Shown: piece after piece, positions 58,516 through 62,245 of the stretch
Layout of the letters: every line of letters begins with the position of its first letter
How positions within the stretch are numbered: the stretch's first letter is position 1
From: a virus
Taxonomy: Duplodnaviria > Caudoviricetes
IMG/VR virus record: IMGVR_UViG_3300027804_000001
Span: 256,001 to 320,000 of that record
Length of the DNA stretch: 64,000 nt
Strand: one strand, 5' to 3'
Notes under the pieces: generated by a model
Database searches by the model: none
The model's input: the letters and a program-made list of their open reading frames with translations, nothing else
What the model was told of the DNA's origin: nothing
Program-made: the position numbers and the translations under genes

Positions 58516-59004
58516 TTAATATACTTGAATACATCTATCCATTCTTAAAGAACAATCGATAGTTGCAATTGCATCGTTATTATAATCTAATTCATTGAAG
58601 TTCAAGTTTGTAATAAAACAACCTTGTAATATCCATTTTTCAACCACAACTCCTGTTGGGTCTAACATTTCCAGTTCTACATCTTTCTTATAACCAGCAG
58701 CATATCCCATTCTACCTGTTACTGATTCGGCATGTAAACGGAACCACTCCATTAATGCTTGAGACGCTGAAGGTCCAATTGGGTCTTTAAATTTAACTCT
58801 CATCTCTTCCCATGTAAATCTACCAGCTACATATGTTGATGTATTTAAAAACGGAATCTCAACTGAGTTAATTTTTGCACTAGGTCTCGCACCTGATGTT
58901 ACATACCATTCATTGATACCCAAAGATGATGGGAATCTAAAGATGAATCGGTTAACACGTTTCGGTTCATATGGAACCGGCATTTTCATTAATAAATCTG
59001 CCAT
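58516..59004 (-). CDS. Tail tube protein (gp19-like)
   Basis: EPKRVNRF, YVAGRFTW, ALMEW, LDPTG..VE.W.L.GC; follows sheath. Confidence 0.92.
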   Translation of the reverse strand: MADLLMKMPVPYEPKRVNRFIFRFPSSLGINEWYVTSGARPSAKINSVEIPFLNTSTYVAGRFTWEEMRVKFKDPIGPSASQALMEWFRLHAESVTGRMGYAAGYKKDVELEMLDPTGVVVEKWILQGCFITNLNFNELDYNNDAIATIDCSLRMDRCIQVY

Positions 59005-59111
59005 TTTGTATTTGTTAAGTTTTAGTTTATCTTTCTTATAAATATATTCAAATCGAGAAATATTTTATTTTACCAAATACTTGATTTTATCAAAAAAATA
59101 TGTTAGTTTTT

Positions 59112-59218
59112 TACTAGTCCCAGTATCCAGTTCTAGAATATTTCTTTATTATTTAATAAATACTAGCATATCTAGTTCCAGAATACTGGGTTGAGTATAA
59201 AAGTATAAAGATTATAAA
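59112..59218. repeat. Origin-like cluster of direct and inverted repeats
   Basis: IR CCCAGTAT 59119-26 / ATACTGGG 59183-90; 12/14 DR at 59127-40 / 59172-85; four CTAG; three A(G/T)TATAAA units at 59194-59218. Confidence 0.6.
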
Positions 59219-59222
59219 AAAT

Positions 59223-59247
59223 GGTTCCCCGTGGAACATGTGGAACA
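59223..59247. promoter_or_regulatory. parS-like palindrome plus an extra half-site
   Basis: GGTTCCCCGTGGAACA = 14/16 to TGTTCCACGTGGAACA, followed by TGTGGAACA. Confidence 0.5.
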
Positions 59248-59251
59248 ATAA

Positions 59252-59278
59252 AAAAGGGAATCCAATGGACTCCCTTTT
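59252..59278 (-). terminator. Intrinsic terminator after sheath gene
   Basis: AAAAGGGAGUCC-AUU-GGAUUCCCUUUU. Confidence 0.8.
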
Positions 59279-59297: not shown

Positions 59298-62150
59298 TTA
59301 AATGTTATCAAAAGATGCTCCTGTTGGAGTGATAATGAACTCAACATCAATAAATTCAAGAGAACGAGTAGGTTTAATATAGATTTTACCTCTAAGTGTA
59401 TTTGCATCTATATCCTCTGGATCATTTGATACTGTTACACGGAAATCATATAAACCTCTTTCTTTCTTAATTGACTCAAGAATTGGGTTTACCAATCTCA
59501 AGAACTCATTTCTTACTTGCTCGTCGTTTTGTTCAAATAACAATCTTACAGAAACCGCAGATATTAACTTTCTTGCTCTTAACAACAATCTTCTTACGTT
59601 AATTCTGTCAAGTGCTGACTCTCTAACCTGTAGGGTTTTATTACCCCATATAATCGTACCAGTGTCAGAGAACGTTGCAATAGGGTTAATTCTGTTCTTA
59701 TATAGGTCATCTCTTTCGTCAAGGGTAAGTTTCTTAAACGCTTTAATTGCGTTTACTAGACCTCTTGAGTAACCCGCCACCGCGAACCATGGATATGATA
59801 CGTTATCGGTTAAAGCGATGTTTTTAACCACTTCACCTGTTGGTGGGATGTATAATTGGGTTGCATTGTCTCCGTCTCTTACCTGAATCCAAGGCCAGTA
59901 TGTTGCGGAATAGTTAGTATCTAAAGCTACCATATCTAAGTCATCAATCACCTCCTCTGCTGTTGACACGTTTGGAGAGTTAATAACATATAATGAATCC
60001 GCTCTATCATTCTCAACCATATCTATCGCTTGAGTTACAAGTGAACTGTGGTTATAGAAATCTATACCAGGTGTTGCGAATACGTTTATATCAATTGCTT
60101 CAGGGTTTGCAAATGTTTGAATACCTTGTAGATATGAATAATAATCAGAATTACCTACTGTAGAACTGAATACACCACCGTTTGTTGTGTGACCACTAAC
60201 ATATGTTGTTTTTCCGAAAATGTAACCATCTCCGTTAGTTCTTACATTTCTATAGATATCCCAACCATCAAATCCACCGAATACTGCAAATGTAAATTTA
60301 CGATTATTAATACTACTTAAACTACCCTTTTCTGTACCTTCTAAATCATATGGTGTCGTTTGATATGTAACACCTGTGATAGAAGATGCGTTTGTTGATA
60401 AGTGGAAACCAAAAGTTTCTGAAGTTGCACCAATACCTTTATACTTAAACAAATCTCTATCATAACCAACTTGAGATGATAAACCTAAAGAAACTTTTCT
60501 AACTTTATCACCGTTTGACAAAATAGGTGTACCGTTTGATTCATAAGAAACTACGTCACCGGCGGTATAATATTTTGTTTTGTAAAGGATACTACCTAAA
60601 TCACTTGATCCTGAACCAAATGCCCCATTACTCTTGAATCCTTTGAAACCAGATGGGAAAGCGTCTGTTGGGTGATTGTCAGCCATAGATAACATAATGA
60701 ACTTAGAACGTAATTCGTATTCACCATCAGATGTACCCACTTTCTTTGCAACATAACCTGGTAAATCAGGATTCATGTTACATCTTGAAAACTTCTCAAG
60801 TACAACTATATTGTCATCAGTATCGTTGAAATCTCTCACGATTAAATCGAAATCACCACTATCTAAGTCGATGTTTTGAATTGTAATTTTAACTTGGAAG
60901 TTAGCAGCCTCACCATCTGAAATTGTAATTACTTCAAATAAATCTGCAACTTCACCACCACGAACTTCAGATACAACCATTGGTGAAATTGTTGTATCCC
61001 ATTGACCTACGAAATTATTACCGTCTGTCTCAACAACAACTGAAGTACTTAAACCTCTTATTAATCCATTATCATATGCTGCCTTTAAAAGGTTAGGATA
61101 TGATTCATGAACATAAACAGGAAAATCTGACTTATCTTTATCAAATACGTCAGTACCCAAAACTTTAGTTATAAATTTAGTTGATCTTGAATCTAATGAA
61201 CAAGTAAATGATTTAGCACCACCTGTTTCACCTGTTACATTAAGAGTAAACTCATTTAATGGATTTAATTCAATATCTACACCAACAATCTCATCAATAT
61301 CTACAGATGTACTACCACTAACTTCTAATTGTAATGTCTGACCACTATATGAACCTCTTGATCTTAACGCTGCCACAACTATGTTGTCATAATCAGTGTT
61401 TAAAGATGCATCATATGAATATCTTGTCACATCGAATACACTTGTACCACTATTCCACACAAACAGATATGAATAAACATCTGTTATTGAAAGTCCACTA
61501 TTAAAGAACACGTTGTACCATTCTTTTTGGTGATTAGAAGTTTCATTATCAACACCTGTTAAAGGTGAAATAACCTCATCTGATGCGGTTAATGCTGAGA
61601 TATCATCTGAATCACACTTACCGATAACAAACCATTTTCCATCGTCTGAATTAGTAAAACCACTAAAATTTTCATTAATGTAATCTGTTATTGATGAACC
61701 GTCATGTGCTGTTTTACCTGAAAGTTCACCAAATATAGGGGAACCACTTGGGGTATCAGGATTCATTGTTACACCGCTTGTTGTAACTGATGTTAAATCT
61801 ACAGTCACACCACCTATTGTTTTTATACCATAAGTTTTTCCTGGTTTGTATCCAGTTAAACCCAATACTCTTGTTACGAATAATTGATTTGATTCTTCTA
61901 AATATGATTTAGCTACGTATGGTAATTCATACTTTGGATTACCGTTACCATCTTTCACTGGAGACGTTGGGCCAAAATATGTTCTAAACTCATCGAAGTT
62001 GCTAATTAAAATTGGTTCAAATGCGGGTCCTTTTAGTGTTTCACCAACGAGACCTAATGTTGTTACACCTACACTTTGAGCCACAAATGTTAAATCTTTC
62101 TCTGATGTATACACACCCGGAGAAACGAAAACTCTGTTTGAACTTGCCAT
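59298..62150 (-). CDS. Contractile tail sheath protein (gp18-like)
   Basis: SPGVY..E.D, G....GP, YWPW, PWFAVAG..RG, NPI, WGNKTL, RINVRRL. Confidence 0.97.
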   Translation of the reverse strand: MASSNRVFVSPGVYTSEKDLTFVAQSVGVTTLGLVGETLKGPAFEPILISNFDEFRTYFGPTSPVKDGNGNPKYELPYVAKSYLEESNQLFVTRVLGLTGYKPGKTYGIKTIGGVTVDLTSVTTSGVTMNPDTPSGSPIFGELSGKTAHDGSSITDYINENFSGFTNSDDGKWFVIGKCDSDDISALTASDEVISPLTGVDNETSNHQKEWYNVFFNSGLSITDVYSYLFVWNSGTSVFDVTRYSYDASLNTDYDNIVVAALRSRGSYSGQTLQLEVSGSTSVDIDEIVGVDIELNPLNEFTLNVTGETGGAKSFTCSLDSRSTKFITKVLGTDVFDKDKSDFPVYVHESYPNLLKAAYDNGLIRGLSTSVVVETDGNNFVGQWDTTISPMVVSEVRGGEVADLFEVITISDGEAANFQVKITIQNIDLDSGDFDLIVRDFNDTDDNIVVLEKFSRCNMNPDLPGYVAKKVGTSDGEYELRSKFIMLSMADNHPTDAFPSGFKGFKSNGAFGSGSSDLGSILYKTKYYTAGDVVSYESNGTPILSNGDKVRKVSLGLSSQVGYDRDLFKYKGIGATSETFGFHLSTNASSITGVTYQTTPYDLEGTEKGSLSSINNRKFTFAVFGGFDGWDIYRNVRTNGDGYIFGKTTYVSGHTTNGGVFSSTVGNSDYYSYLQGIQTFANPEAIDINVFATPGIDFYNHSSLVTQAIDMVENDRADSLYVINSPNVSTAEEVIDDLDMVALDTNYSATYWPWIQVRDGDNATQLYIPPTGEVVKNIALTDNVSYPWFAVAGYSRGLVNAIKAFKKLTLDERDDLYKNRINPIATFSDTGTIIWGNKTLQVRESALDRINVRRLLLRARKLISAVSVRLLFEQNDEQVRNEFLRLVNPILESIKKERGLYDFRVTVSNDPEDIDANTLRGKIYIKPTRSLEFIDVEFIITPTGASFDNI

Positions 62151-62195: not shown

Positions 62196-62245
62196 TCTTT
62201 GTTTTTATGAAAGATTTCCCTAATTTTTTTAAAATAGATATTTAT

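Follow-up and report, generated by a model that had tools for sequence, protein, structure and literature searches.

A putative orphan parS site of the Flavobacteriaceae type between the sheath and tube genes of T4-like jumbo phages from fresh water

The palindrome and its setting between two tail genes

Here we describe a parS-like palindrome in a 64,000-nucleotide stretch of viral DNA (positions 256,001 to 320,000 of IMG/VR record IMGVR_UViG_3300027804_000001), hereafter referred to as the window. The window is T4-like myovirus (jumbo phage) DNA in which every long open reading frame (ORF) lies on the minus strand. Its T4-type genes encode sheath, tube, baseplate hub and wedge proteins, gp32, a RecA/UvsX-like protein, and a DnaB-like helicase, and further genes encode a 5'-3' exonuclease (RNase H-like), an SbcC-like protein, and ribonucleotide reductase. 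The palindrome had been predicted from the sequence alone (the original prediction) to be an intergenic, host-type parS-like site, and it does lie between the tail sheath and tail tube genes, both on the minus strand. On the basis of sequence comparisons, we read it as a selected chromosomal-type parS site of the Flavobacteriaceae variant, carried as a single copy in the sheath-tube spacer; it would be an orphan, most likely loaded by the ParB protein of the host. We hold this reading to be somewhat more probable than the alternatives taken together. The features of the locus are as follows, in the order in which they are met along transcription.

59298-62150, minus strand: tail sheath gene, upstream neighbor, 950 amino acids (PHROG 23, E = 1.8e-62; Pfam Phage_sheath_1 and Phage_sheath_1C)
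59252-59278, minus strand: intrinsic sheath-gene terminator, with a T run behind a 12-pair hairpin
59240-59247: extra half-site, perfect, TGTTCCAC on the minus strand
59223-59238: parS-like 16-mer, GGTTCCCCGTGGAACA on the plus strand, matching TGTTCCACGTGGAACA at 14 of 16 positions
59211-59216, minus strand: TATAAT-like hexamer, 6 nt past the 16-mer, moderately conserved
59119-59190: CTAG-rich repeat block with inverted arms CCCAGTAT/ATACTGGG and two 17-nt direct repeats (59124-59140 and 59169-59185)
59156-59162, minus strand: distal TATTTAT box, inside the CTAG-rich block
59038-59044, minus strand: proximal TATTTAT box, a phage-type promoter motif 40 nt ahead of the tube ATG
58516-59004, minus strand: tail tube gene, downstream neighbor, 162 amino acids (PHROG 4542, E = 2e-24; Pfam Phage_T4_gp19)

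The spacer between the two genes measures 293 bp and is the largest of the late-gene block. Behind the sheath stop codon and the terminator come the half-site TGTTCCAC, the 16-mer (which reads TGTTCCACGGGGAACC on the minus strand), and the TATAAT-like hexamer, followed by the CTAG-rich block with one TATTTAT box, the second TATTTAT box, and the tube start codon.

The 16-mer combines a perfect arm, TGTTCCAC, with another arm that carries two changes. The predicted 14/16 match was reproduced, in that the 16-mer differs from TGTTCCACGTGGAACA at two positions and is the sole match at three or fewer mismatches within the window. The accompanying hand estimate, which put the probability of a chance match at about 1%, agrees with dinucleotide-preserving shuffles of the window, in which matches at two or fewer mismatches had a mean of 0.01 per window and occurred in 1 of 100 shuffles. 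An adjacent half-site had also been claimed, and positions 59239-59247 (TGTGGAACA) do contain the perfect 8-nt half-site GTGGAACA. Along transcription, this half-site immediately precedes the 16-mer, with a register shift of 9 nt. Measured against the parS pattern TGTT[C/T]CACGTG[A/G]AACA, the window copy scores 14/16, and copies in relatives reach 16/16 in six distinct spacers; the window copy is a weakened version with one perfect arm, two changes in the other, and an added perfect half-site. The enrichment of GTGGAACA in the window (12 copies versus 2.7 expected) was rejected as a signal and attributed to codon bias, because the copies outside the spacer are all coding, as are the other GTTCCAC copies in the related genome G001.

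Conservation and copy number in related phages

More than 596 relatives of the tube protein are present in IMG/VR, of which we took the best 80 loci for each of two queries (83 to 100% identical to the query). These loci yielded 58 distinct spacers in the first set and 22 new ones in the second, 80 in total, which were compared with a match cutoff of three or fewer mismatches. The sheath-tube spacer was 240 to 350 bp long in nearly all of the relatives fetched. Conservation at this locus had been named beforehand as a test of the prediction, and the palindrome was found at the same place in 53 of the 80 distinct spacers (40 of 58 and 13 of 22), 30 to 90 nt past the sheath stop codon in the first set and approximately 240 to 340 nt before the tube ATG in the second. 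A perfect TGTTCCACGTGGAACA was present in six distinct spacers (L036, L053, the L054 group, L061, L071, and L291), including those of contigs of 288, 234, and 310 kb. In ungapped windows anchored on the site, the mean pairwise identity among 40 distinct spacers was 0.84 within the 16-mer versus 0.30 to 0.50 in the flanking 16-nt windows. These alignments indicate that the 16-mer is kept by selection and is not a chance match. In one relative (L065/L100; IMGVR_UViG_3300025732_002738), the sheath-tube gap is approximately 1.9 kb instead of approximately 300 bp, an insertion in the spacer, and a perfect parS is still present 258 nt ahead of the tube start.

Variation within the 16-mer is confined to a few positions. 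Letters 1 to 8 (TGTTCCAC) and 11 to 15 (GGAAC) are almost invariant, and letters 9, 10, and 16 vary. Across the 40 distinct spacers, positions 5 and 12 vary independently of each other, between C and T and between G and A, respectively, with 32 of the 40 variants showing the C5/G12 form. The nearest subclade retains the extra half-site TGTT(C/T)CAC, which is identical to the window copy in L045 and reads TGTTTCAC in L040 and TGTTTTAC in L046. In L028 and its kin, half-sites are arranged as GTGGAAC-GTTCCAC-GTGGAAC, and L059 has a second TGTTCCAC 27 nt downstream. Extra half-sites in such varied arrangements are typical of protein-binding sites.

In a tree of the sheath and tube proteins, site-bearing spacers occurred across most clades. 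Its occurrence on both sides of the midpoint root suggests that the site was present in the ancestor of the sampled group and was lost repeatedly. In the largest parS-less clade (L002-L019; e.g., L002:3746-4001), an invariant block of approximately 20 nt, GTAAAAATTGAGATGAC, stands directly before CCCAGTAT, at the place where other relatives have parS and approximately 38 further nt. This block may be a replacement cis element.

Two long relatives allowed the site to be counted on a genome scale. G208, at 310,542 bp, carries direct repeats at its ends and has a completeness rating of 100%; for G001 (288 kb), the rating is 92%. The spacer site is the only exact match in G208, with one 2-mismatch match elsewhere, and G001 has one exact site and three 3-mismatch matches. 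The only intergenic GTTCCAC heptamers in G001 are the two arms of the site. A nucleotide search gave no match among cultured phages, and the closest tube proteins from cultured phages were 34 to 39% identical. The sheath-tube gap of Flavobacterium phage immuto is 45 bp, with no parS at two or fewer mismatches, and LR756508 has one 2-mismatch parS match, located elsewhere in its genome.

A match to the parS variant of a candidate host family

A Bacteroidota-type host, to which the original prediction had pointed, was corroborated by the expression signals in G001. The Bacteroidota promoter pattern TTG-N17-21-TAnnTTTG was located ahead of 35 of 331 ORFs (background, 2), and the early cassette region shows these -33/-7 promoters directly. 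Shine-Dalgarno-like motifs were nearly absent (17 of 331 ORFs). A search with the phage NrdA protein led to short contigs binned into two metagenome-assembled genomes (MAGs) titled Flavobacteriaceae, one of which became the center of family-wide genome searches. NrdA relatives (L222-L227; 72 to 92% identity) lie in MAGs labeled Flavobacteriaceae, Thiothrix, Acidimicrobiaceae, Woesearchaeota, and "uncultured archaeon." The NrdA-bearing contigs in these mixed MAGs are most likely mis-binned phage DNA.

In the family of the MAG, the pattern TGTTYCACGTGRAACA had one to three exact matches in 108 of 121 genomes, and a control pattern had none. The exact CC/GG form of the palindrome was present in 52 of 81 genomes of the family versus 4 of 81 across the phylum. 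Flavobacteriaceae parS sites show the same variation at positions 5 and 12 as the phage sites (TGTTCCACGTGAAACA and TGTTTCACGTGGAACA) and are usually paired, approximately 1.9 kb apart; in one genome (G043), two of them directly flank gidA/mnmG, beside ybeY and holB-like genes. A canonical ParB of approximately 300 amino acids (HTH_ParB, E of approximately 1e-36) was encoded in 41 of the 41 family genomes tested, and one that was extracted begins with the ParA-interaction motif LGRGL. Judged by its letters and their tolerated changes, the phage element is a parS variant of this one candidate host family, and its assignment to the host-type parS class is supported.

The same palindrome has been characterized experimentally in another bacterium. 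TGTTCCACGTGGAACA is identical to parS2/parS3 of Pseudomonas aeruginosa, and the ten natural parS sites of that species include GGAACC endings and CACGAG and CACATG cores, as in the phages (PMC4368675). All ten are bound by ParB in vitro, with an affinity that drops as core and arms diverge, and those that, like the window copy, keep one arm intact and have two changes in the other bind better than those in which both arms are changed (PMC4368675). GTTCCAC heptamers are also described as bound by P. aeruginosa ParB (PMC5961200, PMC10419367).

Partition proteins of the phages and a possible phage-encoded reader

The statement in the original prediction that no ParB is seen in the window was upheld by tblastn, with a Flavobacteriaceae ParB and a ParB-like protein of the relatives as queries; neither matched anything in the window better than an E value of 0.17. 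Searches for HTH_ParB (E values up to 0.1) and for the ParA family AAA_31 found neither in the complete G208 genome or in G001, and no self-contained parA-parB-parS cassette was present in G208, in G001, or in the window. The phages form a widespread, uncultured family of freshwater T4-like jumbo phages without canonical ParB or ParA. The lineage is not free of ParB-fold proteins, as G001 (at 220903-221655), G002, and G208 encode a divergent ParB-like protein of 251 amino acids with a DGQHR motif.

This protein is the main rival to host ParB as the reader of the site. Under that explanation, it would load as a nucleoside triphosphate-dependent clamp or act as a repressor, in the manner of KorB or Noc, and would mark, organize, or regulate phage DNA; it could also compete at the parS sites of the host. 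The 251-amino-acid protein matches PHROG 12305, "ParB-like partition protein," with an E value of 6e-22. Its AlphaFold model, based on an alignment of 44 homologs, has a predicted local distance difference test score of 92, and Foldseek aligned it with two-domain ParB, Noc, KorB, and pNOB8 ParB structures over 215 to 277 columns (E = 1.5e-4 to 1e-3). The best PDB matches were pNOB8 ParB, the ParB proteins of Myxococcus xanthus and B. subtilis, Noc, and KorB, with template modeling scores of 0.3 to 0.48. The three genomes that encode the protein have perfect sites; for the contigs without parS, G003 and G004, the comparison does not extend to the part corresponding to G001 at 160 to 250 kb. The gene sits among early cassettes with host-type promoters.

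Several features speak against this protein. It gave no HTH_ParB signal at E values up to 0.1, its Pfam matches to GmrSD_N and ParB_N were below threshold (only 13 to 15 bits for ParB_N), and it is only 11 to 19% identical to ParB proteins, with no significant similarity to Flavobacteriaceae ParB. With similarity this low, retention of the exact 16-bp specificity of the host protein would be surprising. No parS-like sites occur near the gene. We therefore rank the protein below host ParB, because only host ParB is known to recognize this 16-mer and because the phage protein lacks both the helix-turn-helix signature and similarity to Flavobacteriaceae ParB. That the site is read by the phage's own protein and not by host ParB is, in our assessment, unlikely, though less so than the explanations considered next.

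Other elements of the spacer and explanations without ParB

The spacer contains several further elements that bear on the function of the palindrome. Nearly every relative has a G+C-rich hairpin at the place of the terminator, unrelated in sequence to that of the window. A TATTTAT(A) box is located 8 to 47 nt ahead of 13 of the 43 listed gene starts in the window, many of them structural (e.g., 59038-59044 and 62196-62202), and the corresponding count for G001 is 64 of 331 ORFs (background, 5). This box is phage-specific and promoter-like, and it is probably late. TATTTAT(A) reads as the reverse complement of TATAAATA of T4.

The original prediction had also placed origin-like repeats beside the site, and a CTAG-rich repeat block does adjoin it. 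CTAG is depleted approximately 4-fold in the window (41 copies versus approximately 182 expected), yet four copies lie in the spacer (59105-59200). G001 has 146 copies in its 288 kb, nine of which fall in one 500-bp bin around its sheath-tube spacer (67.8 to 68.0 kb). The CCCAGTAT element is kept even in relatives without parS. The CTAG cluster looks like an iteron-type array of putative protein-binding sites. The CTAG copies of spacers are arranged as TCTAGTT or CTAGTAT repeats. Metatranscriptome and metagenome contigs cover the sheath and tube genes and not the spacer; because the DNA runs break there too, this gap is uninformative on transcription of the spacer.

Given this setting, the palindrome might be an operator or cis site of a protein other than ParB, its likeness to parS being coincidental. 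Candidates would be a transcription factor acting in the promoter region of the tube gene or a packaging or replication protein acting with the CTAG repeats. Such a role would suit a palindrome in the largest spacer of the late block, with a TATAAT-like hexamer 6 nt away and TATTTAT boxes and a CTAG cluster downstream, and the left arm is indeed better conserved than the right. It is nevertheless very unlikely that all 16 positions would agree by coincidence with the palindrome typical of the host family and share its degeneracy at positions 5 and 12. Moreover, there is one site per genome and no adjoining regulator gene, and TATAAT is no promoter element of the inferred host type. We regard this explanation as improbable. 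A sigma-70-type promoter with the palindrome as its -35 element or operator was a weakened candidate for similar reasons: the host type uses -33/-7 promoters, and TATAAT showed no clear enrichment ahead of G001 genes (43 versus a background of 26).

A role at the RNA level appears very improbable, whether the element is taken for a hairpin behind the sheath gene (a second terminator or a processing hairpin) or for the beginning of a small leader ORF (ATG TTC CAC ...). A simple scan calls a 5-pair hairpin and T run on the minus strand at 59237-59224. The variation does not follow that of a hairpin, and the second-terminator reading was rejected on this pattern: at least 11 of 40 spacers have A-rich sequence where the T run should be, changes at positions 5 and 12 yield uncompensated C-A mismatches, and conservation is no lower at the loop letters A7 and C8 than in the stem. 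As for the leader ORF, an A precedes TGTTCC in 36 of 40 spacers, which gives an ATG, and the window and its nearest relatives have an open frame of 28 codons there. The frame ranges from 6 to more than 28 codons, however, the letters that vary occupy codon positions 1 and 2 with position 3 fixed, and most changes among close relatives alter the amino acid, so that it was dismissed as varying like noncoding DNA. No Rfam family was detected at threshold. These patterns of variation all point the same way, to a protein-binding site and not an RNA element. Finally, the suggestion in the original prediction that the half-sites resemble DnaA boxes was not borne out, as no match to TTATCCACA at one or fewer mismatches occurred in any site-bearing spacer.

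Proposed role of the site

The parS/ParB pair is the main chromosome segregation and SMC-loading system of bacteria. In the literature, ParB-cytidine triphosphate (CTP) clamps are described as loading at parS and sliding onto flanking DNA, with ParB linking the DNA to ParA and SMC. If the phage site is loaded by host ParB, as we favor, the host ParB-CTP complex would load on the phage DNA at the spacer site after infection, and the phage genome would become a client of the ParABS/SMC machinery of the host. The spacer would suit such loading because it lies behind a strong terminator in the late-gene block, which should be silent early. The most likely payoff would be that phage genomes are partitioned or positioned while their host cells continue to divide, in a delayed or carrier-state infection, and a second would be SMC-mediated organization of replicating phage DNA. 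Less likely options are that ParB regulates the neighboring late promoters or that replicating phage DNA titrates ParB. In a bolder form of the proposal, which we put forward tentatively and consider possible rather than probable, the phage would be a pirate with a bare centromere, hijacking host ParB and, through it, ParA and/or SMC, so that its genome of approximately 300 kb is handled like a replicon of the host in a delayed or carrier-state infection.

A number of observations weigh against loading by host ParB. The protein tree requires at least three to five changes (losses), and the site is missing from a few clades, which makes it dispensable; such repeated losses imply that its function is conditional. 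The CACGTG core is reported to be important for ParB binding (PMC4368675), and it is intact in only 17 of the 40 distinct 16-mers; one of the two mismatches of the window copy also falls in this core. The divergent ParB-fold protein of the relatives could be the true reader, as discussed above. The Flavobacteriaceae host itself is inferred from the promoter type and MAG titles. A lytic T4-like lifestyle, furthermore, gives no obvious need for partitioning. G208 encodes a tyrosine recombinase of 273 amino acids (Phage_integrase, E = 4.9e-36; G208:C1:187797-188246), which hints loosely that some of these phages have a plasmid-like biology; no tyrosine recombinase was found in G001. The G208 enzyme could be a dimer resolvase resembling Xer or could belong to a mobile insert.

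If host ParB does load at the site, the consequences would extend beyond this phage family. It would give a large, lytic-looking phage a route to persist in dividing cells or to use host condensin, and it would constitute natural centromere piracy by a virulent-type virus. Since the site variant matches one bacterial family, it would also serve as a host prediction signal for uncultured phages. For research on ParB and SMC, the phages would offer a natural single-site substrate with graded natural variants.

Occurrence in other viral contigs

The exact TGTTCCACGTGGAACA was also present in at least 120 other viral IMG/VR contigs (L087-L206). Among the matches listed, 45 of 101 scorable sites were intergenic, though only approximately 20% of that DNA is noncoding according to crude ORF calling. 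Low-GC examples include L105 (with a pair of copies spaced 297 nt apart), the 351-kb contig L110, L120, L143, and L198, and no ParB was found among the nearest ORFs tested in these five. Orphan host-type parS sites may thus be more widespread in phages.

Comparison with known systems

The element itself is of a known kind, and its context is new. Like chromosomal parS (consensus TGTTNCACGTGAAACA), it is a 16-bp palindrome in the form common in the sampled Flavobacteriaceae, is intergenic, and is accompanied by half-sites, and it tolerates the same variants (C/T at position 5, G/A at position 12, C at position 16, and weakened cores). Unlike chromosomal parS, the phage copy lies between tail genes and not near a chromosomal origin, and it is one copy and not a cluster, on a replicon without canonical ParB or ParA.

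To our knowledge, partition sites occur in phages only where the phage also encodes ParA and ParB itself, as plasmid-prophages do. P1 (mentioned in PMC12704722) has a parS with P1 ParA and ParB, and N15 has sop; both are temperate, with their own ParA, ParB, and site sequence. The phages described here resemble them in having a centromere-like site on the phage genome, which would let the genome segregate in dividing cells. They differ in that the site is that of the host and that searches of the phage relatives did not find the partner proteins. The literature describes a staphylococcal phage that has a ParB-like gene of its own, and our full-text literature search returned no report of a virulent-type phage that keeps a host-type parS.

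Another parallel is provided by virulent phages of Alphaproteobacteria, in which CtrA boxes have been linked to an idea of "lytic deferment" (PMC9437464). In both cases, a virulent-type phage has sites for a host protein of the chromosome or cell cycle, possibly coupling infection to the state of the host. CtrA is a transcription factor with sites in several promoters, whereas here a single centromere-type site is predicted to serve a DNA-clamping CTPase.

The mechanism proposed here has a precedent in plasmids stabilized by parS. In the Soj/Spo0J system of B. subtilis, a single chromosomal parS stabilizes an otherwise unstable plasmid. Likewise, one parS together with host parAB stabilizes an otherwise unstable plasmid in P. 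aeruginosa (PMC4368675). As we propose for the phage, these plasmids are foreign replicons that supply only the cis site and depend on trans factors of the host. They are laboratory constructs, whereas the phage site would be a viral example that occurs in nature and is conserved in evolution.
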